46,317 bases of DNA from a virus. The notes beneath the pieces are model-generated. The model had not been told where the DNA came from, did no database searches, and was given only the letters and a program-made list of their open reading frames with translations. The DNA is taken from positions 1 to 46,317 of IMG/VR virus record IMGVR_UViG_3300045988_083108; one strand, written 5' to 3'. Below are positions 1-46,317 of the stretch, one piece after another. Each line of letters starts with the position of its first letter. The stretch's first letter is position 1. The position numbers were made by a program, and so were the translations under genes.

Positions 1-55
1 CATCGCGGCACAAGCGCAGCGCATTAACCAGCTTGAACTTGCCCAGCAAATGTGC
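1..55. repeat. Terminal overlap: bases 1-55 are identical to 46263-46317 (circular closure of the sequence)
   Basis: Direct comparison of both window ends; the same 55-mer catcgcggcacaagcgcagcgcattaaccagcttgaacttgcccagcaaatgtgc occurs at each. Confidence 0.97.
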
Positions 56-142
56 GGCGTAGTGCGTTATCCCATGACCTACGCTTATAGCGCCGGTGCA
101 TCTCCGTTCTGCGGTGGCCCTTGCGCTGGCAACGCCATCTAA
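2..142 (+). CDS. 3' end of the junction-spanning gene that starts at 45751 (tail ...QQMCGVVRYPMTYAYSAGASPFCGGPCAGNAI)
   Basis: Reading frame is continuous through the 55-bp overlap; TAA at 140-142. Absent from the ORF track because there is no start codon at this end. Confidence 0.7.
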   Translation: MAAQAQRINQLELAQQMCGVVRYPMTYAYSAGASPFCGGPCAGNAI

Positions 143-234
143 ACTAACTCTGATTTAAACGCCCTGTAGGCGAGGTTTATTGGCGGGGCAGGTATACTTG
201 CTCCGCCTTTTATTTTGTGAAAGGATGAAGAATT

Positions 235-663
235 ATGTCTAAAGCAATTGGCTATTATACATACACTGGCGCAACCGCTCTGGCTGTTGGCGGTGCTTTG
301 CCGCTGACAAACACTGTCAGACAATACGGCAACGCTATTCGCCTTGGCAACAATGGCGTTATCATCGGCTCTGCTGGCTGTCCTTGCGTTTGCAATGATG
401 CGGCTGGATACTATTCTGTCTCGGTCAATACAACGCTTGTAGCGTCTGCCGCTGGCCCTGTGACGGTAACTCTGTATCAGGACGGTCAAGCCGTATCTGG
501 TGCAACACAAACTGTGACTGCCGCCGCAGCTGATTCCGTTGGTATTGCTTTCACCGCTCCTGTTCGCGTGTATCGCGGTCAGGTTTCCAGCCGTTTGCAA
601 GTAATCGTGACTGGTCAGGCTGTTACAACTTCCAACGTGGCAGTTGAAGTCGTTAAGGAGTGA
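235..663 (+). CDS. Stand-alone BclA C-terminal domain-like (C1q/TNF-like jelly-roll) protein, 142 aa, no collagen-like region
   Basis: ORF with RBS aaagga upstream. Its pattern (GALPLTNTV..GNAI, GYYSVSVNTT, VTVTLYQDGQAVSG, RLQVIVTG, VEVVKE) lines up with my recollection of the Bacillus BclA C-terminal domain (PFNTV..GTAI, GFYKITV, LTIQVNGVPV, LVEVIVTG, IIEKV). Confidence 0.6.
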   Translation: MSKAIGYYTYTGATALAVGGALPLTNTVRQYGNAIRLGNNGVIIGSAGCPCVCNDAAGYYSVSVNTTLVASAAGPVTVTLYQDGQAVSGATQTVTAAAADSVGIAFTAPVRVYRGQVSSRLQVIVTGQAVTTSNVAVEVVKE

Positions 664-668
664 TTGCG

Positions 669-1211
669 ATGACGGTCGAGGAAGTCTTTGCCAAAATAAA
701 AGCGCACCAAATCGAGGGAACGATGTTCCACGACCAAATGCGCCAATACTTTGACTTCTTGAACTTAAAAGGCTTCAAGCGTATGCACGAACACCACTAC
801 AAAGAGGAATCTTACAGTCTAGTAAAAACTGATTCGTTCTACATGAGACGCGCAAACTCGTTTATCCCGGAATACTCTGTATCAACTCAAAGTTACATTC
901 CGCAGAACTGGCGCAGTTATCGCAGACAAGATGTAGATGCCACCACAAAGCGCAGAGCCGTAAAGGACGCAATGGCGAAGTGGGTGGAATGGGAACGTCA
1001 GACTAAAGACCTCTACTCCACAAGTTATAAGGAACTTTTAAACGATAACGCGATAGATTTTGCAGAATTCGTCAAAGAGAATCTTGTGCTTGATGTGTCG
1101 GAAGAACTTGCATTTGCAGAGAGCCTGTACATGGAACTGGAAAACTGCGATTACGACATGGTTTATCTTGCAGAGATTCAGCCAGATTACAGCAAAAAAT
1201 TCAAGAAGTAA
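669..1211 (+). CDS. Hypothetical helical protein with a ferritin/Dps-like helix pattern (tentative)
   Basis: ATG 669 lies 9 nt after aaggag, whereas the track's GTG 660 has no spacer. HQIEGTMFHDQMRQYFDF..LKGFKRMHEHHYKEES resembles ferritin helices A/B, but the metal ligands are only partly conserved. Confidence 0.45.
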   Translation: MTVEEVFAKIKAHQIEGTMFHDQMRQYFDFLNLKGFKRMHEHHYKEESYSLVKTDSFYMRRANSFIPEYSVSTQSYIPQNWRSYRRQDVDATTKRRAVKDAMAKWVEWERQTKDLYSTSYKELLNDNAIDFAEFVKENLVLDVSEELAFAESLYMELENCDYDMVYLAEIQPDYSKKFKK

Positions 1212-4016: not shown

Positions 4017-4328
4017 ATGAGTAAGTATGGTAGAGCGGCTGACTGGGGAGGTTCTCCGCTTGAGGAACTTGGCGTTTGGGCGATGCTTCAACCCGGAGCG
4101 CACCACAAGCCTAACATAAAGGCGCTTAAACAGGCAGTTAATGATTTGTGCCACCTGACGATGCAGAAAACAGCAGGACAGAAAAAGTACGCAAAAGCTG
4201 GGGATTTATCTTTTGATGACCTTGACGGCATCAAGTGGACAATTCTTATTGAAGCGGTGATTCTTGTTCTGTCCGGCAAGTTGGACGGCATGGAAGATGA
4301 AAGCGAGGATGAATATGGACGCAGTTGA
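4017..4328 (+). CDS. Hypothetical protein
   Basis: ORF, RBS aaaggagag. Confidence 0.65.
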   Translation: MSKYGRAADWGGSPLEELGVWAMLQPGAHHKPNIKALKQAVNDLCHLTMQKTAGQKKYAKAGDLSFDDLDGIKWTILIEAVILVLSGKLDGMEDESEDEYGRS

Positions 4329-4665
4329 ATATGTAAAAGCTCTACGCAGACTGTGCAGAAGTAAAATAAAGTGTTCTGAATGCCAATTATTAAACAAAGA
4401 AGAGCACTGCTGTATGGCTGATATAGGCGAATGTGCAGAAAAGACTGTGCAGATTGTTGAGCAATGGGCAAAAGACCACCCAGTCAGGACCCGCCAGAGC
4501 GAGTTTCTGAGGATGTTCCCAAAGGCGGAAATGAAGGACGATTACCTCTGGATGTGCCCTAAATACATTAACTATGATTACAACCCGGAAGAAAATTGCC
4601 ACGAAATCAGTTGCAGCGATTGCAAACGCAAATTCTGGCTCACGGAGGTGACCGACAATGACTAA
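4315..4665 (+). CDS. Hypothetical Cys-rich protein
   Basis: Start moved to ATG 4315 (RBS gagga, 5-nt spacer). Confidence 0.6.
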   Translation: MDAVEYVKALRRLCRSKIKCSECQLLNKEEHCCMADIGECAEKTVQIVEQWAKDHPVRTRQSEFLRMFPKAEMKDDYLWMCPKYINYDYNPEENCHEISCSDCKRKFWLTEVTDND

Positions 4666-4768
4666 CATTACAACCCTGCGCCCCGGCGAACACTTTATGT
4701 TCAAGAATTTTGAGTGGGTCTGCCTTGACCCGAATCGCTCAATCTGCGCCAGAGCATGGCATATGTAG
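4658..4768 (+). CDS. Mini-ORF, 36 aa (MTNITTLRPGEHFMFKNFEWVCLDPNRSICARAWHM)
   Basis: Hand-translated; RBS ggaggtg with a 7-nt spacer; ATGA-type overlap with the upstream stop. Confidence 0.45.
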   Translation: MTNITTLRPGEHFMFKNFEWVCLDPNRSICARAWHM

Positions 4769-4781
4769 AGGAGGTATCAGA

Positions 4782-5063
4782 ATGAGCACAGTAATAGACG
4801 AGGATTTCGGAACAATTTGCGTTTGTGCTGTTCGTTACTGCTTCGGCAGACAGACATATATGCCAAGTCTTGTACAGGATTTCGTTTGCAGGAACTTTAA
4901 GTATCTCAATGACAACGAACTTAAAGTTATGGTTGATGACATCAACTTTGCGGAGCGAATCAATCAGCTTGGCGATGAACGAATTGACAAGCCGGATTGG
5001 CTAAAGTTTAGAGAAAGAATTAACTCTGAATTAGAGAAAAGAAAGGCTGAACAAAATGCGTGA
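4782..5063 (+). CDS. Conserved phage hypothetical protein (AVRYCFGRQTYMP motif)
   Basis: Start moved to ATG 4782 (RBS gaggaggt). Confidence 0.65.
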   Translation: MSTVIDEDFGTICVCAVRYCFGRQTYMPSLVQDFVCRNFKYLNDNELKVMVDDINFAERINQLGDERIDKPDWLKFRERINSELEKRKAEQNA

Positions 5064-8650: not shown

Positions 8651-8929
8651 ATGTTGACAACTATTTATCATGGGTATATCGGCTTCACAATGACGTTGTT
8701 CACTGTTGTCGGAGCACTTTCCGTGTGCGTTATCGCTTGCATTATTCTTGCAATGCTTGCAAATACGCTTCAAGACCTTTTAATCGCGTTTAAAGATAAC
8801 TGGGACGAGTACAGGTTCTTTATATACTATCAAGCTAACTTTGAGTTGTGGCTCGATTCTAATGGCTACAAGATGGAGTGGGACGAAGAACATGACAGGG
8901 CTAGGTGGGTAAAAGATGACAAGAAATGA
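8651..8929 (+). CDS. Membrane protein
   Basis: Start moved to ATG 8651; N-terminal hydrophobic helices. Confidence 0.55.
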   Translation: MLTTIYHGYIGFTMTLFTVVGALSVCVIACIILAMLANTLQDLLIAFKDNWDEYRFFIYYQANFELWLDSNGYKMEWDEEHDRARWVKDDKK

Positions 8930-9194: not shown

Positions 9195-9394
9195 AGTTTA
9201 ACGGTGTTCCTATTAAATGTGGCGATTTGCATTTTTGGACTATGGTTAATAAAAATGAAGTTGGAAAGCCGCATAAACTTGAGAACTTTATGAACGCATT
9301 CCCAACGGCAAATATTCTGCAAGTAACTCAATATGTGGCTGGTTCTTGCCTATACACGACAATTTGGTTCGTTGATGAAAAGGAGACAAAATGA
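9191..9394 (+). CDS. Hypothetical protein
   Basis: ORF, RBS aaaggag, overlapping starts and stops. Confidence 0.55.
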   Translation: MKFNGVPIKCGDLHFWTMVNKNEVGKPHKLENFMNAFPTANILQVTQYVAGSCLYTTIWFVDEKETK

Positions 9395-10638
9395 CACCAC
9401 TTGATTCCGAAACTGCGATGATTGGCTGTCTGCTGGTTCAGCCGTCAATCTGCTGCGATGACACTTTCTCCGAGTTAAGCGAAGTCATGTTCTCCGATGA
9501 GGGTTGCAGAGAAATTTTTAGAATCTGCAAAAATGCCTATCTGGATAAAAACGGCGCTTATGACATTGCAAGCATCGCTTCTAAGATGAACACAAATTGC
9601 AAGAAGCTGGCAATGAGATACGCGGAAACACTTCCGTCTGTTTCTAACTGGAAGTTATATATGCAGGGCGTGAAAGACGCTTATGTGACGCGGGAAGTAA
9701 TCGCAAAGGCAAACGACCTGTTGAATGCCACAGCTTTCGGAAACCCCACTGTTGACGAGTTACAGGTTCTCGCGGAGAACGTTATTAAACCGTTCAATGG
9801 AGTTAAGGAAGCGGAAAGCACAAACGCAAAGAGCGCAGTTGACATCTTTGAGCAGGAACAGAAACGCTCGCCGGAATACTTCAAGTTTGGCATTCCGACA
9901 CTTGATGATTCCTCTTTTGTGGAAGCTGGCGACTTGGTCGTCATTGGTGGCAGACCGTCAGCCGGTAAAACTGCCGTTAGCATCAACTTTATGATGTACA
10001 TGGCAAGAAAGCACAAGTGCGTATTCTTTAGCTTTGAGACACGCAAAGAGAAGATTATCGACAGAATGATTGCGGCTTACTGCGGGATTCCTCTCTCCAA
10101 TATCAAGCGCAGATGCCTGACAGATGAAGATAAAAAGCGGTGGCTGGAAGCAAAAGCGGAGTTTGCTAAATTGGACTTAGAGATTGTGGAAGCTGCCGGT
10201 CACACCGTAAGATGGGTGCGCAATGAAGCAGTAAAGCGCGGTGCAGAAGTCATCTTTGTTGACTACCTTACAATCGTCAAATCGCATGGCAATGGCCGCT
10301 ATGAAATGACGACAAATGCAATCAACGAACTGCACGTTATGGCGCAGAACGAGAAGATTGTCACAATCGTTCTCGCGCAGATTAACCGTCAAGCGGCAGC
10401 ACAAGCGCCGACAGTGGCAGACTTGAAGGAATCGGGCGGCATAGAAGAAGCAAGCGACATGATTATTCTGTTGCACAACGGCTATGAAGATGGCTACAAG
10501 ATGATTCTCGGCAAGAACAAAGAGGGTCACGTTGGTACAATCGACTGCGTGTTTGATTCCAAAAAGCAGACAATCAGAGAACTCGGAGTAGACGAAGATG
10601 ATTTTCAAGACTGCTCTGGTCAGCAATTACCGTTTTGA
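9391..10638 (+). CDS. dnaB: Replicative DNA helicase (DnaB/G40P-type)
   Basis: Walker A GGRPSAGKTA; DnaB N-terminal domain pattern; FVDYL and LAQINR motifs. Confidence 0.85.
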   Translation: MTPLDSETAMIGCLLVQPSICCDDTFSELSEVMFSDEGCREIFRICKNAYLDKNGAYDIASIASKMNTNCKKLAMRYAETLPSVSNWKLYMQGVKDAYVTREVIAKANDLLNATAFGNPTVDELQVLAENVIKPFNGVKEAESTNAKSAVDIFEQEQKRSPEYFKFGIPTLDDSSFVEAGDLVVIGGRPSAGKTAVSINFMMYMARKHKCVFFSFETRKEKIIDRMIAAYCGIPLSNIKRRCLTDEDKKRWLEAKAEFAKLDLEIVEAAGHTVRWVRNEAVKRGAEVIFVDYLTIVKSHGNGRYEMTTNAINELHVMAQNEKIVTIVLAQINRQAAAQAPTVADLKESGGIEEASDMIILLHNGYEDGYKMILGKNKEGHVGTIDCVFDSKKQTIRELGVDEDDFQDCSGQQLPF

Positions 10639-25279: not shown

Positions 25280-26989
25280 TTAGAAAGGTCTTTTGAAAGC
25301 AGTAACCTTGCATCCAACTATTGTTTGTACGAAAATTGACAGCTGACTGCAACTGTCGCAGAAATCATCATGGTTATTCTTGGCAAGCTGTGAATATGAC
25401 CACATTTCGCGCATGGCAGCGCCGTATTCGCTTCCAGCTTCGTACATGCTCTCATGCTTGAAAAAGAAGTGTTTTTTGATATAGTCTGACTGCGTAAGGA
25501 TTTTTGTCTGCTTGTTTGCTGTCGTTAGTTTCGTTCTGATTGAAGTGTGCGCCCCAATTACTTGCAGTTCTTTTTCAATATGTTCCGCAATCATCAATCC
25601 TTGGTTGTTTGATTCCACCTGATTGATTGATATTTTGTGCTTTTTGCATTTCTGCGCAATCTCTGGGACAACCACAGTCGGCAAGGCAGAGTTATAAACG
25701 ACATCTTCGATGTAAACATCTTCTCCGTAGATATATCCTACCGGCATTGATGTAAAGTCACCGCCACCAAGAGCCGTATCTGTGACGGACAAAATTGCGT
25801 CCGGTTCAATGCCTTGCGGAAGCTCCATATAGTATTGAAGCGTGTCTTTTTGGAAGATAGCGCCACGGGTTTCGATGGGCTGCTGCTGAAATTCAGATGC
25901 CCACTGGCTTTCTAGTGTTAGTTTTCGCTCGTTTCTGTAATATTCAGTGCTGAAACCAAGACCGTATTTGTAACGGAAGTTTGATTCGTCTGTAACGGGG
26001 TCAAGCGCTGGCACTTCGACAATCTTCACACGCCAACCAAGCTGTTTGCCCATTTCTTGCAAATGACCGATAGGGTCATGAATAGAATACCGAGTTCCGA
26101 TAATGATAATCGGAACACCCTCTTTTCGTCTGCCAAGCACATCGCCGCGGATTTTGTTCCACAGCAAGTCAAGGCGAGCGTAGTTGTTCGCTTCCTCAAA
26201 GCCACTCACGGGGTCGTCAATCGAAAGAAAGTTACTTGCTTCCGTAGCGCCCGTCAGTTTGCCGTCAATGGAACGGCATGTTATTGTGGGGAAACGCTTT
26301 TTTGAGTTCAAGTCGATTGACTTTAACTCCGCGTTAGTGTTCGCAATGGTTGCTCCCGGGAAAACATCCCAATAATTATAAGTTGCCCTGTCTTGCATGA
26401 TTTCAAGGCAACCGTCATAGAACGATTTTACAAGCTGGTCGCCTTGTCCTGTCAATAGAATTGACTTGTCCGGGTACATTCCAGCACGCCAAATTGAGAA
26501 CAAAATCGAACCAAGTTGCGATTTTCCGCATCTTTTCGGCATGGAAACCGTCAAAAGGTCTAGCTTTCCGTCCGCTATGTCTTGATACCCGTCAACAATC
26601 TTTTTTAGCTGGTTCTTTCTTGGTGCGTAGAAACGCTTATCTGGTCTGCGGTCAAACTCCAAGTAAAGCAAGAAACTGTCAAAATATTTATGAGCCAAAA
26701 ACAGAAGCGAACTCTTAGTTAGGACAAGCCACTTTCGTTTGTCGTCAATGTCTCGCGCATTTGCCGCGTTGAACAGACAGGCGTTGTAAACTTCCATGCC
26801 TTTCTTAAAGGCATACTCCGCTTCTGCTGTTTTTGTTTCATAGCTGCCGTCATCTTTTGCGGTTGCGTTTGCACAGGCAGAAAGCAATGCTTCCGCAAGT
26901 CGAATGTCTTTCGGGTTCTCTTTCAGCAGCTTGGAAAACGAAGCGATTCGCTTATGGTCGTTAATCTGTTGTTGTCTTTGCATTTGCAA
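25280..26989 (-). CDS. terL: Terminase large subunit
   Basis: 569 aa; ATPase region MPKRCGKSQL (Walker A-like) and LSIDDP (Walker B-like); C-terminal nuclease-type domain; size and context. Confidence 0.8.
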   Translation of the reverse strand: MQMQRQQQINDHKRIASFSKLLKENPKDIRLAEALLSACANATAKDDGSYETKTAEAEYAFKKGMEVYNACLFNAANARDIDDKRKWLVLTKSSLLFLAHKYFDSFLLYLEFDRRPDKRFYAPRKNQLKKIVDGYQDIADGKLDLLTVSMPKRCGKSQLGSILFSIWRAGMYPDKSILLTGQGDQLVKSFYDGCLEIMQDRATYNYWDVFPGATIANTNAELKSIDLNSKKRFPTITCRSIDGKLTGATEASNFLSIDDPVSGFEEANNYARLDLLWNKIRGDVLGRRKEGVPIIIIGTRYSIHDPIGHLQEMGKQLGWRVKIVEVPALDPVTDESNFRYKYGLGFSTEYYRNERKLTLESQWASEFQQQPIETRGAIFQKDTLQYYMELPQGIEPDAILSVTDTALGGGDFTSMPVGYIYGEDVYIEDVVYNSALPTVVVPEIAQKCKKHKISINQVESNNQGLMIAEHIEKELQVIGAHTSIRTKLTTANKQTKILTQSDYIKKHFFFKHESMYEAGSEYGAAMREMWSYSQLAKNNHDDFCDSCSQLSIFVQTIVGCKVTAFKRPF

Positions 26990-27357: not shown

Positions 27358-29040
27358 ATGCTTAATAAAGGCCGAAATAGAATCTATTCTTCTTATGAAC
27401 CGGATGAGATTGACGCTGTTGCAGTTGCCCGGATTCTGGCTGATGCGATTCCTGTTCACCTTAACAATGCTCAAGACATTGACTATTTGCATAATTATAC
27501 AAAGGGTATTCAGCCTGTACTTGACCGCACAAAAGAAGTGCGCCCGGAAATCAACAATAAAATTGTTGAGAACCATGCGTATGAGATTGTTGAGTTTAAG
27601 ACCGGCTATTGTTTTGGCTCTCCTGTAACCTATGTTGCAAGGGCTAAAAACGATGATAATGTTCAGACGGCAGATTATACTACCAACAAAAAAGAACCGT
27701 CAGAGCAGCCCTCTAAGCCGCGCAAACGCGGCAATGAGGACAAGGTGAACAAGCTGAATACGCTTTGCCTTAACGATGACAAGCCGAATACAGACAGAGA
27801 GCTTGCTGACTGGATTTTTGAGTGTGGCGTTGGCTATAAGGCTACTTTCCCGCTTTCCGCTTCCGCTATGCGCAGAAAGGAAAAGTCTGCACCGCCGTTC
27901 CATACATCCGTGCTTGACCCGCGAAACACTTTCTGCGTGTATAGCACAAACATGGAGCACTCAAAACTTCTAAGTTGCAGTTATCACAGGAAGCACGGCT
28001 CCGGTCAGATTGACACGGTTGAAATCGTTGCCTATACGGATGATAACGTGTACACGACATCGCTTCCGTATTCAATGCCCGTTGCTGATGACAGTGACCA
28101 GTCAACATCTTGGATGGACATTGTTGTCAGTGGGACAACCCAATTTGAAGTTGCGCCCAATCCTATGGGGATTAACCCGATTGTTGAGTATGACGCTAAC
28201 ACTTCACGATTGGGTTCTTTTGAGCCTGTTATCGAACTTCTTGACGCGCTGAACGAAACAGTTTCAAACCGCGTTGATGGTGTAGAGCAGTTTGTGCAGA
28301 GCTTCATCAAGTTCATTAACTGCGACATTGACGAAGATACCTTTAAGGCGATGAAAGAACTTGGCGCTATCAAGGTTCAGTCAAATGGTCAGTACACTGC
28401 GGATGTTGACATCATCACAAGCGAACTGAATCAAGACCAGACACAGACGCTTGTCGAGGATATGTACAACAAGGTTCTTGCCATTGCTGGTGTGCCTGAT
28501 AGACGCGCTTCCGCTGGCGGTAACACTGGTCAAGCACTTATTATCGGTCAAGGTTGGACAAATGCAGAGAGCCGCGCATTGAGCTTTGAGAAGATGTTCT
28601 TCAAGAGCGAGCGGGAAACCATTCTTGTGACCTTGAAGATTCTGCAAAGCTATCCGCAATTCAAAGTTACAGGTCTTGAAACAGCAGATATTGACATCAA
28701 GTTCACTCGGAACAGAACTGACAATCTGCTGAACAAGAGCCAAGTGCTTTTGAATCTGCTTCAAGCTGGCGTGCATCCGCTTGGCGCAATTTCTCTTAGT
28801 GACATCACCAGCGACCCGGAGAACCTTTATGCAATGAGCGAGGAATTTATTATTCCCAAGTGGAAAGTAGATAACACGCAGCAAGAGGAACGCACCGGAA
28901 CTGATGACATGACAAATAAAAAGCAGGACGCTGACAGCGCAAAGAACGCACAGCGCAATGCCAAAGCTAATGATACGACAACTTCTGGCGATAACAACGC
29001 ACAGAACGATGCAATCAACAAGGCTAAATCGGAGCAATAA
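27358..29040 (+). CDS. Portal protein (SPP1 Gp6-like)
   Basis: 560 aa. YLHNYTKGIQPVLDRTKEVRPEINNKIVENHAYEIVEFKTGY is the N-terminal pattern of SPP1-type portals. Confidence 0.8.
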   Translation: MLNKGRNRIYSSYEPDEIDAVAVARILADAIPVHLNNAQDIDYLHNYTKGIQPVLDRTKEVRPEINNKIVENHAYEIVEFKTGYCFGSPVTYVARAKNDDNVQTADYTTNKKEPSEQPSKPRKRGNEDKVNKLNTLCLNDDKPNTDRELADWIFECGVGYKATFPLSASAMRRKEKSAPPFHTSVLDPRNTFCVYSTNMEHSKLLSCSYHRKHGSGQIDTVEIVAYTDDNVYTTSLPYSMPVADDSDQSTSWMDIVVSGTTQFEVAPNPMGINPIVEYDANTSRLGSFEPVIELLDALNETVSNRVDGVEQFVQSFIKFINCDIDEDTFKAMKELGAIKVQSNGQYTADVDIITSELNQDQTQTLVEDMYNKVLAIAGVPDRRASAGGNTGQALIIGQGWTNAESRALSFEKMFFKSERETILVTLKILQSYPQFKVTGLETADIDIKFTRNRTDNLLNKSQVLLNLLQAGVHPLGAISLSDITSDPENLYAMSEEFIIPKWKVDNTQQEERTGTDDMTNKKQDADSAKNAQRNAKANDTTTSGDNNAQNDAINKAKSEQ

Positions 29041-38471: not shown

Positions 38472-38723
38472 ATGTCTGATAACGAACTCATTATTCAGCT
38501 TCAAACCAATGTTCTGAACGCAATAAATTCTTCACAGATGCCGCTTATGGTAAAGTCCTTGGTTGTAGAAAATGCTCTTTTGAAACTTAACGCAGAGTTA
38601 AAGAATGAGCAAATCGCAAACCTGCAAGCTAACCAAGAAGTGAATTTGCACGTAGATACGTTGGAAATGAACACAGGCACGAAAGACAAACAAGCAGAAG
38701 CAGAAGAAGCAGAAAAGGAGTGA
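38472..38723 (+). CDS. Hypothetical protein
   Basis: ORF, RBS aaggagag. Confidence 0.6.
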   Translation: MSDNELIIQLQTNVLNAINSSQMPLMVKSLVVENALLKLNAELKNEQIANLQANQEVNLHVDTLEMNTGTKDKQAEAEEAEKE

Positions 38724-38728
38724 TTTTC

Positions 38729-39382
38729 ATGCTTTTTGACGGTAGAAATAGAATCCGTTTCCCGTACTCGCGTTATGGCTATACGCGAGGGAACGGCAAG
38801 GTCTGGCACGGTGGCGCTGATGTTGACGGCCTTGACGATTCAATTATTCACTTTCCGCGATATGCAGACAAGAGCATTTCCGGCACAGTAGTGACGGCAA
38901 GAATTGTCACAGACAAGCGAAACAGGACATGGGAATGGGGCTATTATGTCTGCGTTAAGCTGGACGCGAACCAAACGCCCGATGTTGTGAACTACCTTTA
39001 TTTTTGCCATTGCGAGAAACTCTTGGTTAAGGTCGGGCAGAAAGTTAAAAGTGGAGACCCGATTGCCGTTATGGGAAACACTGGAAATGCGGCACTTGCC
39101 AACCCGCCTTTCAAGCATTGCCACTTTGAGGTTCGCGCATCTGCCACTGGCAAAGGTCTTGACCCTACAAAATACATCGGCTTTGCGAATGCTGTCGGCG
39201 TATATGATTCGGAAGTAGAGGTAGAAAAGAACGACATCCCAGAAGTAAACGAGCCAAAGTACAAGTTACAGATGATTACCATTGGCCCTGTTTCACAAGG
39301 CGATGCAGATAAAATCTACGCCACAGCAAAAGAACTATGTTTAACAGAACAAGGGCTTTACAAATCTGAATGGGTAGAGTAA
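38729..39382 (+). CDS. M23 family metallopeptidase with the C-terminal 43-aa duplicated module
   Basis: WHGGADVD (HxxxD) and HCHFEV (HxH) motifs; start moved to ATG 38729; module at 39251-39382. Confidence 0.75.
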   Translation: MLFDGRNRIRFPYSRYGYTRGNGKVWHGGADVDGLDDSIIHFPRYADKSISGTVVTARIVTDKRNRTWEWGYYVCVKLDANQTPDVVNYLYFCHCEKLLVKVGQKVKSGDPIAVMGNTGNAALANPPFKHCHFEVRASATGKGLDPTKYIGFANAVGVYDSEVEVEKNDIPEVNEPKYKLQMITIGPVSQGDADKIYATAKELCLTEQGLYKSEWVE

Positions 39383-40821: not shown

Positions 40822-40980
40822 ATGAGAACCGCTAACAAAGAAGTTGATGAGCCTAAGTCCAAGTTACAGCTAATCTCTGTCGGGCCGGTTTCGCAGGGTG
40901 ACGCTGATAAAATTTATAGTCTCTGCAAGGAACTTGGCCTTGTGGAGAAAAATCTCTATAAATCCGAGTGGGTGGAATAA
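40822..40980 (+). CDS. 52-aa protein consisting of the duplicated module alone
   Basis: ATG lies 1 nt after the collar-gene TGA. Residues 10-52 share 32/43 identities with the M23 C-terminus by hand alignment. Confidence 0.5.
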   Translation: MRTANKEVDEPKSKLQLISVGPVSQGDADKIYSLCKELGLVEKNLYKSEWVE

Positions 40981-40981
40981 G

Positions 40982-43276
40982 ATGCACGTTATAAAACTGA
41001 ATGGTTACAATGCCACAACAGAGAATGGTGAAAAGCTGGAACTCGGCACATTTAACAGCTATGGAGAGGAACAACTTCAAATTGTTGAAGCGCCAGATTG
41101 GGTAAATTTAAGCGTAATAGCGACATTTAATCCCCCAAACAAAAAGCCTGTTCAAGTTGCTGTTGATTCCATTACCGGCGTTATCAAAGTTCCGAAGGAA
41201 GCTACGGCTGATTTGTACGGCGTTGGAACGATTGTGTTTGTAGGTCTTGCAAACGGCGTACAGCGCATCTCTGCCGATTGTGAATACATCGTAAGGAAAC
41301 ACTCAAATGCAAGCGGTACAGAGCCAGCAGAGCCTACACCCGACCTGCTACAACAGGTTTTAACTCTAAGTAAGGACGCACAGACCGCCGCCAAGAACGC
41401 AGAGCAAAGCGCAAAAAATGCCGCGAAGGATGCGGCGGACACTGTAAAGCCTTACAAGGAAGAAGCTGTACAGGCGGCAACAGCTGCGGCTTTGAGCGAA
41501 AAGAACGCGGCAGAAAGCAAAGCAGCTGCACAGGAAGCTGCCGAACGTGCCACACAAGCAGGCATTGCGGCAAGTAACGCCGCCGAAGAAGCAGAACGTT
41601 CAGCAGGTATCGCCACAGACGCGGCAGGTGGCAGCGCCCTGAACGCAGAAAATGCACATAAAAGCGCTTTGAACGCACAGCAGAGTGCAAATAATGCCGC
41701 AGAAAGCCAGAGTGCGGCAGAGGCAAGCGCCGAATCCGCAGAAAGAAATGCCGAGCAAACGGCAACCGATGCGAAAACCGCAACCGATGCTAAAGTTGCG
41801 GCAGCGGGCAGCGCCGATGCTGCGGCAGGTTCAGCTAATGCGGCGGGCAATTCTGCAAGCGCTGCGGCGAGAAGTGAACAGGCGGCAGGGGCATCGGAAG
41901 TAAAAGCTGCTGAAAGTGAAAAGGCCGCAAAGGCGAGTGAGCAAGCTGCGGCGGAATCTGCACAGGCCGCGCTGGAAAGCAAAACAGCAGCGGCAACCAG
42001 CGAGGTAAACGCTGCCGCAAGTGCAAAAAAGGCACAGGACGTTGCCGATAGCTTGCCCGAAGATTACACGACAGCAGTAAATGATATTGCTACGCTGAAA
42101 CAGCAGGTGGCAAACATCACGCCCGATGACAGCGCCATTGGCGGCAAGCCGTGGAGCAGCAAGCGCATCATTGATATGTTCTGCCCGCCTCTGGAAGAAA
42201 GCGGCAACCCTGTTGTGTGCTACCCTGTGGCGGGGTATCCACTGGGCGTGAAAGCAAAGTGGGAACCCATGCAGGAAGGCAGCGGAACACCCAGCCCCGA
42301 AAACATTCGTCCCATCAAGGGACGTGACAGCGTGATGGTGGAGCGGTGCGGGGAGAATCTCTTTAATAGAGATGGATTGGTAGTTGGCGCACCAGTTTAC
42401 GGTGAGAATGGAACTATATCATCATACGAAGATGTCGCTGTTTCTTACGTAAAAGTTGTTCCAGGCGCACAATACTCGATTCGTTTGAGGCAAACAGACG
42501 ACACAATTCTGTATACTCGCATTGCTTTTTTGACGAAAAGCAAGAAGTTTATCAAGCGTGCATATATGCTTAACACAAAACATGGTATGGAATCCGAGAA
42601 AACATTCACAGTCTCAACCGACTGTGAATGGATTCAATTTGGGCTGAATAACGGGATAACATTTAACTACAATTTTGATGTCGTTTTCGTTGCTGGAAGC
42701 GCCCCCACCGCCTACATTCCATACACGGGGCAAACCAACACCCTGACCCTGCCCGAAACCGTGTATGGCGGTGAGGTGGACGCGGTGACGGGTGATGGGC
42801 AGGAGACGTGGAAAATACTGACGTTAGACGGAACAGAGCGGTGGATGGACAACGGCTCCGTCCCGAGCACAAAACAGCAGCAATGGGCATTATATGGAAT
42901 ACTAGAACCTTATTCTGCGGTTTTGGGAATTTCAAGCCATTTTGATAACCAAAAAAAATTTAATGAATATCCGTTTAACTTTGTACGCATTTCTTCTACA
43001 TCCGTCGTACTTCACGTGGCCTCAGATGGACCTTTCGCAACAGTCAATGATTTGAAATCCTACCTTGCCGCCCAGTACGCCGCAGGAACACCCGTGCAAG
43101 TCTGCTACAAGCTGAAAGAGCCTGTGCCCTTCACCGCGACAGGCGCACAGCCGTTGCCAGCGCTTGTAGGAGTAAACACCGTGCTGACAGATGCCGACAG
43201 CGCGACTGTGACGGGACGCGCAGACCCCATTAAGCGAATCACCGATTTGGAAGATGCGGTGGCATCTCAAACATGA
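40982..43276 (+). CDS. Tail fibre with an Ala/Ser/Glu-rich repeat shaft and a C-terminal receptor-binding-type domain
   Basis: Start moved to ATG 40982; about 230 aa of SA..A/AE..A periodic repeats (41340-42040). Confidence 0.7.
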   Translation: MHVIKLNGYNATTENGEKLELGTFNSYGEEQLQIVEAPDWVNLSVIATFNPPNKKPVQVAVDSITGVIKVPKEATADLYGVGTIVFVGLANGVQRISADCEYIVRKHSNASGTEPAEPTPDLLQQVLTLSKDAQTAAKNAEQSAKNAAKDAADTVKPYKEEAVQAATAAALSEKNAAESKAAAQEAAERATQAGIAASNAAEEAERSAGIATDAAGGSALNAENAHKSALNAQQSANNAAESQSAAEASAESAERNAEQTATDAKTATDAKVAAAGSADAAAGSANAAGNSASAAARSEQAAGASEVKAAESEKAAKASEQAAAESAQAALESKTAAATSEVNAAASAKKAQDVADSLPEDYTTAVNDIATLKQQVANITPDDSAIGGKPWSSKRIIDMFCPPLEESGNPVVCYPVAGYPLGVKAKWEPMQEGSGTPSPENIRPIKGRDSVMVERCGENLFNRDGLVVGAPVYGENGTISSYEDVAVSYVKVVPGAQYSIRLRQTDDTILYTRIAFLTKSKKFIKRAYMLNTKHGMESEKTFTVSTDCEWIQFGLNNGITFNYNFDVVFVAGSAPTAYIPYTGQTNTLTLPETVYGGEVDAVTGDGQETWKILTLDGTERWMDNGSVPSTKQQQWALYGILEPYSAVLGISSHFDNQKKFNEYPFNFVRISSTSVVLHVASDGPFATVNDLKSYLAAQYAAGTPVQVCYKLKEPVPFTATGAQPLPALVGVNTVLTDADSATVTGRADPIKRITDLEDAVASQT

Positions 43277-44105: not shown

Positions 44106-44315
44106 ATGCCGACAGAGATTGCCCAAAACGTTTACATGAACTACGGCGTTCTCGGCTGCGTTATTGTGTCGTTTTTCATCCTGATTTGGTGGGTCGTTAA
44201 GACTTCCAAGGAACGTGAGGATAAGCTATACGGCATAATTGAAACCCTTTCAAAGGAGCTTCCCGAAATTCGAAAAAACCTTGAAGAAATCAAGGACAAA
44301 CTGTTTGATGATTAA
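44106..44315 (+). CDS. bhlA: BhlA/UviB-family holin-like protein
   Basis: 69 aa; one N-terminal TM followed by the charged helix KEREDKLYGIIETLSKELPEIRKNLEEIKDKL. Confidence 0.6.
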   Translation: MPTEIAQNVYMNYGVLGCVIVSFFILIWWVVKTSKEREDKLYGIIETLSKELPEIRKNLEEIKDKLFDD

Positions 44316-44327
44316 GGTGTGAATCCA

Positions 44328-44633
44328 ATGGATGTTGATACAAAGCTGGACATGGTGAAAGACCCTACCAGCGGGACAGATAATTACATTTCACAGTTTG
44401 TGTTTGAATCTTGCGAAATGCGTCACGAGAAGCGCGAGAAGCGATATTTTTCGATTATCGTTCTGCTTATTGTCCTGCTTGTTGCAACAAATGTTGCGTG
44501 GCTGTTCTATGAAGCACAGTTCCAAGTGCAGACATCAGAAACAGTTACAACCACTACAACGCAAACAGTTGACGCAACACAAGAAACTGCTGATGGCGAT
44601 GCAAGCCTTGACGTTACGGCGGGTGGTGATTAA
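44328..44633 (+). CDS. Single-pass membrane protein with a Thr-rich ectodomain
   Basis: Start moved to ATG 44328. Confidence 0.5.
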   Translation: MDVDTKLDMVKDPTSGTDNYISQFVFESCEMRHEKREKRYFSIIVLLIVLLVATNVAWLFYEAQFQVQTSETVTTTTTQTVDATQETADGDASLDVTAGGD

Positions 44634-44635
44634 CA

Positions 44636-44743
44636 ATGGCAAAGCAGAAAGTACGCATTAAGACAGTTACCACAACAACACGGACTAAGACAAGAACCCG
44701 CGTTAGAAAGAATCAAAGCAATGGCAAAAAGAGTGGTAAGTGA
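44636..44743 (+). CDS. Mini-ORF, 35 aa, very basic (MAKQKVRIKTVTTTTRTKTRTRVRKNQSNGKKSGK)
   Basis: Hand-translated; RBS ggtggtga; overlaps the next gene by 23 nt. Confidence 0.35.
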   Translation: MAKQKVRIKTVTTTTRTKTRTRVRKNQSNGKKSGK

Positions 44744-44936
44744 GGATATTTCTAACAAAGAGTTATCCGAACTGATTGATTTGTGGGTAAGAGGCGAAAC
44801 GCCGAGAGCTGTTCTGAAACGCCGCCTGATTGACGAGCGGACATTTGACCAGCTTTCGGAAGAATTTGGCTACTCCGTCCAGCGAATCAAAGTTATCACC
44901 TATAAAGCCGAAGAACAACTGTTCAAACACATCTGA
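44721..44936 (+). CDS. Sigma-70 region-4-like HTH protein, 71 aa
   Basis: RTFDQLSEEFGYSVQRIKVITYKAEEQL. Confidence 0.55.
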   Translation: MAKRVVSEDISNKELSELIDLWVRGETPRAVLKRRLIDERTFDQLSEEFGYSVQRIKVITYKAEEQLFKHI

Positions 44937-44951
44937 ATAATAGACAAATAA

Positions 44952-44990
44952 AAGCCTTATCGGGACTTCTCGATAGGGCTTTTTCTTTTT
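44952..44990 (+). terminator. Strong rho-independent terminator
   Basis: 11-bp stem aagccttatcg/cgatagggctt, 8-nt loop, then a T-run. Confidence 0.85.
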
Positions 44991-45020: not shown

Positions 45021-45503
45021 GTGCAGATGCCTATGTATGGCTCACCTATGGGCTACAATCAACCGTATGGCGGCTGGCAAGCCCCACAACAGCTTTATCA
45101 ACCGCAGACGAATAGTTTTATGCCTAAGGCACAGAACGCCCAAGACGGCCTAAATCAGGGCTATGGCTCAATGCCTTGGATTTTTGTTTCCAGTGAGGAA
45201 GATGCGAGAAATCGCATTGTTCAGCCAAATCAAACAGCTTGGTTCATGGATAACAACAATCCGTACTTCTATGTGAAGTCTTGCGATGTTTCCGGCGCTG
45301 TCACATTCAAGAAATTCAAGTTCTCCGAAATGTCTGGCGAACCGGCTACCGATTGTAGGCAGTTGGACGAGGGCAAAATCCGTCAAATTGTAGATGAACG
45401 GCTCAACGAATTATTGAATATTAAGGGAGATGTGAAGAATGAATCCTCTGACTTCTCTGTTCCAACAGGCGAACGCCGCGTCAACACCAAATCCGCAAAG
45501 TAA
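45021..45503 (+). CDS. Hypothetical protein with a Q/P/Y/G-rich N-terminus
   Basis: GTG start, RBS gaggtg with a 7-nt spacer. Confidence 0.6.
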   Translation: MQMPMYGSPMGYNQPYGGWQAPQQLYQPQTNSFMPKAQNAQDGLNQGYGSMPWIFVSSEEDARNRIVQPNQTAWFMDNNNPYFYVKSCDVSGAVTFKKFKFSEMSGEPATDCRQLDEGKIRQIVDERLNELLNIKGDVKNESSDFSVPTGERRVNTKSAK

Positions 45504-45675
45504 CCCAATGCAAATGATTCAGATGCTTGGCCAAGTGAAGCAGATGGTCGGTTCTCGGAATCCGAGTGCTGTGGTTGACGAACTTGTAAAGACAGGCAGA
45601 TTCAGCCAACAGCAAGTAGACCAAGCGAAAAAGATGGCTGAACAGATTTACCCGCAAGTAAAGAGTTTCCTTTAA
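45439..45675 (+). CDS. Small helical hypothetical protein, 78 aa
   Basis: RBS aagggaga; overlaps the preceding ORF by 65 nt in the +1 frame. Confidence 0.5.
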   Translation: MNPLTSLFQQANAASTPNPQSNPMQMIQMLGQVKQMVGSRNPSAVVDELVKTGRFSQQQVDQAKKMAEQIYPQVKSFL

Positions 45676-45750: not shown

Positions 45751-46317
45751 ATGGCAATGGAAGATTCTAGCATGATGTCCCCTGCCGACATTGCCGCTCT
45801 GACCCGTGGCAACACTGGTTTTGGTGGCGATGGCATTTCTTGGCTGGTGCTGATTCTGCTGTTCTTTGGCTTCATGGGCGGCGGCTGGGGTGGCCGTTAT
45901 GGCAACGGCGAACTCGGCCAGTACGCTACTGCGGCTTCCCAGCAGGACATTCTGTTCGGTCAGCACTTCGGTCAAATCAATGACCGCCTGACCAACATCG
46001 GCAACGGCGTTTGTAGCCTTGGCTACGATATGCAGGGCAACATCGGTCAGCTCGGCAAAGAGATTGCGCTCGGTCAGGCTAACTTGCAGTTGCAGGCCAG
46101 CAACAACACTTATGCGCTGTCTAATCAGCTGTCCAACTGCTGCTGCGAAAACCGTCTGGCTTCTGCCCAGCTTGGCGCACAGATTGACAAGCAGACTTGC
46201 GACATCAATGCCAACATTGATGCTAAGTTTGCCGAACTGCAAAAGGGCCAACTGGAACAGACCATCGCGGCACAAGCGCAGCGCATTAACCAGCTTGAAC
46301 TTGCCCAGCAAATGTGC
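45751..46317 (+). CDS. 5' part of the junction-spanning gene: Gly-rich TM segment, Q/N/L-rich coiled region, CCCENR motif (217 aa once joined to 56-142)
   Basis: ATG 45751, RBS gaaaggtgg; open to the window end in frame. The track shows only an antisense shadow ORF here. Confidence 0.7.
   Translation, partial: MAMEDSSMMSPADIAALTRGNTGFGGDGISWLVLILLFFGFMGGGWGGRYGNGELGQYATAASQQDILFGQHFGQINDRLTNIGNGVCSLGYDMQGNIGQLGKEIALGQANLQLQASNNTYALSNQLSNCCCENRLASAQLGAQIDKQTCDINANIDAKFAELQKGQLEQTIAAQAQRINQLELAQQMC
46263..46317. repeat. Second copy of the 55-bp terminal overlap
   Basis: Identical to bases 1-55. Confidence 0.97.

Follow-up and report, generated by a model that had tools for sequence, protein, structure and literature searches.

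A stalkless homologue of the BclA head is encoded next to a predicted Cys-rich membrane protein in a portable phage gene module

Heads of the BclA/TNF/C1q type form the tips of collagen-like fibres on spores and viruses. Among them is the C-terminal domain (CTD) of BclA, the protein of the exosporium nap of Bacillus anthracis (PF18573; 1wck, 2r6q, 3twi), an all-beta jelly-roll of 134 aa. Here, we describe gene D, an open reading frame (ORF) in a stretch of viral DNA of 46,317 nucleotides (IMG/VR record IMGVR_UViG_3300045988_083108, positions 1 to 46,317; hereafter the window), the product of which has the same fold as the BclA-CTD at 20% identity. In contrast to BclA, protein D has neither an N-terminal leader nor a collagen GXY region, is encoded as a separate gene and belongs to a phage rather than to an exosporium locus; furthermore, residues 46-57 form an additional CPCVC loop that is typical of its subfamily.

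235..663, + strand: gene D, stand-alone BclA-C/TNF-C1q-like jelly-roll protein of 142 aa

In functional terms, the nearest analogue of a head docked to a partner is BxpB/ExsFA/ExsF, a stand-alone, stalkless protein with a fold like that of D. BxpB/ExsF is a trimer whose subunit interface captures a short partner peptide (BclA residues 20-38 or F-Anchor residues 14-35), and it represents a solved precedent for a stand-alone head that works beside Cys-rich proteins (PMC10470788, PMC12357932). The first 19 residues of BxpB are disordered and include Cys, and the protein has a Ca2+ site; D, in contrast, begins at beta strand 1 and consists of the head domain alone. Moreover, the partner of BxpB is a collagen fibre with an N-terminal leader, while for D the putative partner is the product of the adjacent gene C, a membrane protein that bears a tail at its C-terminus. 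TNF/C1q knobs of fibre tips (uncultured Caudovirales collagen-repeat proteins, Hokovirus and gp24 of Pam3; PMC9608196) use the superfold of D as a distal, variable, trimeric head, but they are fused to collagen, helical or beta-helical shafts within the tail module, whereas D stands free of any shaft, is encoded away from the tail module and has a membrane protein as its constant neighbour. Eukaryotic C1q/TNF proteins (C1q, C1QL, cerebellin, Caprin-2, 4-1BBL and TWEAK) share the jelly-roll topology of D (E 1e-5 to 6e-5, template modelling (TM) score 0.6-0.78), a likeness that stays at the superfamily level, with 10-14% identity. Finally, several uncharacterised gut-phage entries, two of them named 'BclA protein', resemble D in length and fold and offer names only.

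A first-pass annotation, made from the letters of the window, had read D as a BclA/C1q/TNF-type head and proposed a structural comparison. The AlphaFold2 monomer model of D, built on 41 relatives, reached a predicted local distance difference test (pLDDT) score of 88 and a predicted TM score (pTM) of 0.80 and comprises ten beta strands. When it was compared to the PDB with Foldseek, the best five matches were all BclA-CTD structures (3twi, 3tyj, 1wck, 2r6q and 2z5w; E 3.4e-8 to 6e-8, TM 0.70-0.74), followed by the CTD of F-BclA (9h38; E 4e-7 and weaker, TM 0.68-0.78) and the stand-alone BxpB/ExsFA (8d02, 7r1m, 7r5i and 9h3d; E ~1e-6). The latter gave the highest TM scores of all matches (0.75-0.79; 0.79 for 8d02 and 0.75-0.77 for 7r5i/7r1m), with 14-15% identity in the structural alignments. 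The matches to 4-1BBL, the C1q domain of Caprin-2, C1QL, C1q and TWEAK were weaker (E ~1e-5, TM lower overall), and further ones comprised the phi812 spike, tail proteins of cyanophage A4 and the BC2L-C N-domain lectin. The proposed comparison therefore bore the fold call out, with BclA-CTD ahead of F-BclA, BxpB and C1q/TNF.

At the level of the single sequence, D had no significant match in Pfam, PHROGs, NCBIfam, PADLOC or the PDB sequences, and its hits to Big_7, Ig_2 and Cna_B (E 0.007-0.17) were set aside as generic beta-sandwich noise. The search against Pfam BclA_C (PF18573), which had likewise been proposed, failed for D even at E<=10 (gathering cut-off 38 bits), and the C1q (PF00386) and TNF (PF00229) models gave no match at E<=10 either. 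Four distant family members reached 16.6-22.7 bits (E 9e-5 to 7e-3) against BclA_C, below the 38-bit cut-off, while a BclA-CTD control scored 87 bits. Profile alignments were more informative. With a BclA-CTD query, the identity of which with PDB 2r6q_A had been confirmed beforehand, hhalign returned a probability of just 37% for the narrow 41-sequence profile of D (A1), in contrast to 96.2% (E 2.7e-9, 122 columns) for a diverse family alignment of 119 sequences (A2). In the latter, all five motif blocks named in the first-pass annotation were placed opposite their BclA-CTD counterparts: PLTNTVRQYGNAI with PFNTVGSQFGTAI, GYYSVSV with GFYKITV, VTVTLYQDGQAVSG with LTIQVNGVPVPG, LQVIVTG with VEVIVTG, and VEVVKE with IIIEKV. 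The likeness of the D family to BclA is therefore far beyond chance at the family level; the block-wise resemblance claimed for D holds for the family profile and fails for the sequence of D taken alone. In line with this, BclA was the sole significant sequence family when a hidden Markov model (HMM) of the 119 sequences was run against the PDB with hmmsearch (E 1.6e-6 to 9.5e-6), next to faint cerebellin and TNFSF13 matches (E 0.04-0.3). BxpB and ExsF chains were absent from the PDB sequence matches of the family profile (E<=1) and of D alone (E<=10). D and the BclA head are homologous at the superfamily level, with D outside Pfam BclA_C by the threshold of that model, and, judging from the predicted structure, the likeness of D to C1q and TNF appears to be one of fold only.

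The absence of GXY repeats and of an N-terminal anchor, likewise noted at first reading, was confirmed: gene D begins at the first start codon past an in-frame stop, so an N-terminal extension is impossible, and an AAAGGA Shine-Dalgarno-like motif lies ~9 nt 5' of its ATG. Protein D contains no run of three or more G-X-Y repeats, no frame of the window contains a run of five or more, and D has no signal peptide, leader or hydrophobic segment, including at its N-terminus. The CPCVC loop (nt ~370-405) is the least confident region of the D model (pLDDT 74-79) and is specific to the subfamily, being absent from 76% of the wider family; a Cys at position 3 occurs in 52 and a CC or CxC motif anywhere in 125 of 171 family members. 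A weak trend towards variability in the loops and distal face of D was not used as evidence.

The lack of a stalk is not peculiar to this phage. A homologue search yielded 60 close relatives of D, and the family profile recovered at least 900 representative clusters (50% identity) at E<=1e-3, 386 of them at E<=1e-10. A set of 204 family sequences comprised 171 of 125-150 aa, 15 fragments and 18 longer ones, 14 of the latter being deletion fusions (see below); none of the 204 contains four or more consecutive GXY repeats. A stalkless head, which had first been taken as exceptional, is the rule within the D family, a large group of phage proteins of 130-145 aa, with BxpB/ExsF as the solved precedent. 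The best matches of D in BFVD were stand-alone proteins of 130-145 aa from uncultured gut phages (TM 0.81-0.87, 20-28% identity). Such look-alikes in BFVD and UniProt include A0A8S5PWG2 as well as A0A8S5SGY1 and A0A8S5S925, the latter two already labelled 'BclA protein' by an automated pipeline, whereas A0A8S5PI58 (Siphoviridae sp. ctsxw88) is a true member of the D family, with 60% identity. Given these labels and the BxpB/ExsF precedent, the fold call is only modestly novel on its own. In the literature searched, which was not exhaustive, no study of the function or the partner genes of stand-alone BclA-like proteins of phages or prophages was found.

What is new is the context of D. The window carries an identical 55-nt direct repeat at its two ends (1-55 and 46263-46317), which indicates a circularly closed phage assembly with a true length of 46,262 bp. 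Gene C, which lies upstream of D, therefore runs across the junction.

45751..46317, + strand: 5' part of gene C, translated across the circular junction; partner protein of 217 aa in all with 8 Cys; phrog_16490, function unknown
56..142, + strand: 3' part of gene C, conserved tail GVV[KR]YPxxYxYxAGxSPFCG and stop codon (bases 1-55 repeat 46263-46317)

The first-pass annotation had suggested that the head might dock through an adjacent Cys-rich membrane protein, and such a protein is indeed encoded there. C combines an acidic N-terminal tail and a single hydrophobic helix between Gly-rich stretches with a long predicted helix, and it also has a CCC motif and a tail rich in Cys. Its structural model is of low confidence (pLDDT 42) and places helices at residues 28-43 (the hydrophobic one), 70-166 and 172-186. 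More than 2578 homologues of C were found, in which the N-terminal S.ADIAA(L/V)T, the transmembrane helix and its Gly-rich flanks, the strong segment GQYATAASQQEILFGQQFGQINDRLTNIGNGIC.LGY, the CCC motif and the tail LEL..Q..GVV[KR]YP..Y.Y.AG.SPFCG are conserved. Starting from D, we recovered 80 viral and 2 genomic loci, 76 of which contained enough upstream sequence, and in all 76 a C-type gene lies immediately 5' of D on the same strand. Conversely, a D-family ORF was found just 3' of C in all 80 viral loci recovered via C. The pairing holds over large distances, as in a locus of a Bacilli metagenome-assembled genome (MAG; L002), where C and D share 27% and 35% identity with the window proteins, and in L015 (C 29%, D 57%). 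In the lineage of L019, C shares only the architecture, i.e., an N-terminal transmembrane helix, the CCC motif and a tail that ends in CGCNGNVNL. This gene order is strongly consistent with D working together with the adjacent C. We examined ~165 loci, most of them from samples of the human gut and all with phage or prophage surroundings, and in each, D is tied to a single kind of membrane protein.

C and D belong to a module of five genes, A to E, in which they are separated by a 92-nt spacer.

45021..45503, + strand: gene A, first of the module; 160-aa protein with a Q/P/Y/G-rich N-terminus and a small domain; phrog_21718, function unknown
45439..45675, + strand: gene B, 78-aa helical protein; phrog_22984, function unknown
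182..216, + strand: intrinsic-terminator-like hairpin (11 bp, 8 of them G-C) followed by the T-tract TTTTATTTT, in the C-D spacer
669..1211, + strand: gene E, 180-aa helical protein without family match; starts 5 nt past the D stop codon, with GGAG 8 nt upstream

A hairpin with a T-tract just 5' of the ribosome-binding site of D, built from other stem sequences, recurs in L019 (~4915-4945), L086 (~8667-8700), L006, L014, L015, L017, L002 and L079, that is, in nine lineages including the window. Judging from this hairpin, the transcripts of D and E are probably subject to attenuation, or timed independently of A-C. In all lineages examined, D is followed by a small helical protein, which may or may not be homologous to E of the window. 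The spacer also showed two minor features. A small CGCC..GGCG-AGG hairpin at ~160-172 recurs in several lineages, and in a relative that is otherwise 98-100% identical (L004), a 219-aa Cys-rich ORF (4265-4924) is inserted at a position corresponding to ~145-181 of the window. The insert may be a mobile insertion; its assignment as a homing endonuclease was rejected as unsupported, since it had a weak match to a CapR domain only.

The module is portable. The order A-B-C-D-E recurs in prophages of the myovirus type (L086-L093; with genes for a sheath initiator, baseplate J and Mu gp48), where it sits between a GH25 lysin and an integrase and where A, B, C and D share 30%, 34%, 66% and 38% identity with the window proteins, as well as in a Bacilli MAG. 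Since this order is common to the siphovirus-type phage of the window and to myovirus-type prophages, the module can move between gut Firmicutes phages with different virion genes. Homologues of gene A precede C-D in L002, L014, L079 and L086. In the window, the structural block does not include the module, which comes after the holin-like gene and behind a terminator.

44106..44315: BhlA-type holin-like gene; Pfam match below threshold, PHROG 'bacteriocin production or immunity'
44319-44633: 104-aa small transmembrane protein, directly after the holin-like gene
44721..44936: 71-aa sigma-70 region-4-like helix-turn-helix (HTH) protein (Pfam E 1.2e-4, NCBIfam sigma70-ECF E 9e-5, both below threshold)
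44950..44983, + strand: terminator-like hairpin (15 bp) with T-tract, which parts the module from the upstream holin and HTH genes

Behind this terminator, the genes follow in the order A, B, C, D, E, and past E, minus-strand genes converge. A small HTH-containing ORF similar to the 44721-44936 product is present in L019 (2244-2564), as judged by eye and without a score. Furthermore, L088 encodes a 593-aa protein with collagen repeats (PF01391; 4681-6462) between its lysis genes and the A-E module, which is missing from the sister loci L086 and L087. As a candidate for the missing stalk of D, this protein was ruled out, since it has a globular C-terminal part of its own of ~290 aa.

The C-D region is also the most variable spot of these genomes. 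Compared to L006, L010 and L012, the nucleotide identity of the window is 94-100% on both flanks, but drops to 52-68% from ~46050 to ~700, a stretch that comprises the 3' half of C together with the spacer and the whole of D and has sharp edges (recombination boundaries). In L003 and L005, a D that is 99-100% identical to that of the window stands beside a C 3' half of only 51-62% identity, which shows that the two can reassort; among relatives, D alone or the C 3' half alone was swapped. For 70 unique C-D pairs, the mean pairwise identity was 51% for D, 55% for the middle of C, 70% for the C tail and 74% for the N-terminal part of C, and the correlation with D identity was highest for the C middle (r 0.79), followed by the C tail (r 0.72) and the N-terminal part (r 0.55).

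In addition, apparent homologues of 161-248 aa (P0003-P0013, P0048, P0051 and P0054) turned out to be in-frame fusions, in which short peptides common to both partners join the N-terminus of C or A (the 45021 ORF) to a C-terminal portion of D. They represent at least 6 junctions, with P0010 being a double fusion; the junction that was checked individually is that of P0005. Here, an in-frame deletion of 583 nt (window 46007..46262 plus 1..327), with a 7-nt overlap, fuses C at codon ~84 to D at codon ~33 and thereby removes the first two strands of D. The same junction was found in L083, L084 and L085, i.e., in three independent samples and two assembly sources, which rules out an assembly artefact. 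Because this natural deletion persists, the C-D cassette is not needed for the persistence of these phages. Being portable, dispensable and the most variable spot of these genomes, the cassette bears the signature of a locus for conflict or host interaction. In the literature covered by our search, we found no description of these features, i.e., the invariant C-D cassette, its internal terminator, the swapping of alleles and the portable five-gene module.

The explanation that we favour, at about even confidence, is that C and D form a membrane-tethered accessory complex that targets the host cell rather than forming part of the virion. D would trimerise like the BclA-CTD and BxpB; its close structural matches are all trimers in their crystals (PMC10470788). 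C, as a putative single-pass membrane protein, would hold D at the cytoplasmic face of the membrane and would thus stand in for the collagen stalk. Since D has no signal peptide or hydrophobic segment, contact between the two requires that the helical part of C be cytoplasmic, and the acidic N-terminal tail of C is compatible with this. By analogy with the capture of leader peptides by the BxpB/ExsF trimer, the likeliest contact would be the capture of the conserved Pro/Tyr/Cys-rich tail of C by a D trimer, while the conserved terminator between the genes could set the ratio or the timing of C and D. A-E as a whole may represent a portable accessory module on the late strand that acts on the host by envelope modification, exclusion of other phages or egress. 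If the function of the cassette were solved, thousands of 'hypothetical' gut-phage genes would gain a role, and a new way to build or anchor TNF-like knobs without collagen could come to light.

Several observations weigh against such a complex. The terminator between C and D, together with the tight coupling of D and E, could make E rather than C the partner of D. The reassortment of C and D argues against allele-specific co-evolution, and the gradient of the C-D correlation could be explained by physical proximity, that is, by simple linkage. The long helix of C has a periodicity of 3.67 residues, not a heptad one, and C of the L019 type has none, so a trimeric coiled-coil stalk is unsupported; furthermore, the C tail matched neither the exosporium-leader model nor any other NCBIfam model at E<=1. 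No Pfam, NCBIfam or PADLOC model matched A-E, with A, B and C reaching only PHROG families of unknown function. With regard to defence systems in particular, PADLOC-DB v2 gave no match to A-E of the window at E<=0.1, and for A, D and E of L086 only a marginal match of E (DrmMI, E 0.013). In L002, a tail-fibre-like gene immediately precedes the module. Finally, no integrase was found among the window ORFs scanned, so a role linked to lysogeny is not required in this phage.

A more daring picture, which we regard as possible rather than probable, is that of a 'split fibre', in which C provides a membrane anchor plus helical stalk and presents D as a hypervariable trimeric knob on gut Firmicutes that are infected or lysogenic, either at their envelope or on their spores. 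C and D would then belong to an undescribed class of accessory proteins, serving, e.g., superinfection exclusion or surface conversion, in a five-gene cassette that is spread across unrelated siphovirus- and myovirus-type phages and diversifies by allele swapping.

Alternatively, D could be part of the virion, as a minimal receptor-binding knob or decoration protein that is attached in trans to a fibre or the capsid, with E as its assembly chaperone. TNF/C1q-like knobs are common on the fibre tips of phages and giant viruses (as seen from the collagen-repeat and fibre matches in BFVD, the phi812 spike and the cyanophage A4 tail proteins), the gene for Pam3 gp24 is followed by that of its chaperone gp25 (PMC9608196), the variability of D is on a par with that of the tail fibre gene (48-88% vs 65%), D and E are translationally close, and the position of the module in L002 would suit this reading as well. 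However, we judge it unlikely: the holin, the HTH gene and the terminator separate the module from the tail genes, as do genes on the opposite strand in L019 and L086, the module moves between siphovirus- and myovirus-type phages with different tail genes, and the pairing with a membrane protein is constant. A tail fibre or receptor knob would be expected in, or fused to, the tail-fibre module and would be needed for infection, whereas D is unfused and outside that module and its variants without the first two strands persist in three samples.

It is less probable still that D is soluble, as a lectin-like or host-factor-binding trimer, and acts independently of C, their adjacency reflecting shared inheritance in a mobile module. 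While the terminator between the two genes, the reassortment of their alleles and the existence of TNF-like lectins such as the BC2L-C N-domain would fit such a protein, a reciprocal adjacency in 156 of 156 cases (76/76 and 80/80) would be difficult to maintain across lineages with 27-40% identity unless the two were functionally linked.

Similarly improbable, and in our view slightly more so, is a conversion of the spore surface, in which, within the mother cell of a spore-forming host from the Clostridia or Bacilli, D would act like BxpB/ExsF or a BclA head and C like a Cys-rich basal-layer protein, altering the spore surface in infected or lysogenic cells. The TM scores of D are highest for BxpB/ExsFA, exosporium proteins likewise lack signal peptides, BxpB neighbours Cys-rich basal-layer proteins (PMC10470788), some loci carry Oscillospiraceae and Bacilli MAG labels, and a sigma-70 region-4-like gene lies just upstream of the module. 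However, neither a sequence-level link to BxpB/ExsF nor an exosporium-leader match was found, the module is on the late strand of a phage without an integrase among the scanned ORFs, and C has a transmembrane helix, unlike ExsY/CotY. That D is a chance reading frame, or that its likeness to BclA reflects the composition of an Ala/Val/Thr/Gly-rich beta protein (54% A, V, G and T; no match of D alone in Pfam, PHROGs or the PDB), is refuted for practical purposes by hundreds of homologues of the same length, a confident model and a specific, full-length match to BclA in both profile and fold.

Among the remaining genes of the window, a tail-fibre-like gene closes the structural block.

40898..43276: tail-fibre-like gene, closes the structural block; three small genes are next
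27358-29040, + strand: portal gene
25280-26989, - strand: large terminase, divergent from the portal gene
20178-20897, - strand: thymidylate synthase
9391-10638, + strand: DnaB-like helicase

No canonical endolysin was found near the holin-like gene, and the sole peptidase-like ORF (38720-39382) lies within the tail block. Neither gene D nor gene C was found in isolated phages (INPHARED); the nearest isolate given for the virus record is Clostridium phage Maintenon (40%). Host labels are limited to Oscillospiraceae and Bacilli MAGs, from the two genomic loci found when genome contigs were scanned with the narrow D profile (A1). Among the myovirus-type prophages, that of L089 is adjoined by a TsaD fragment.

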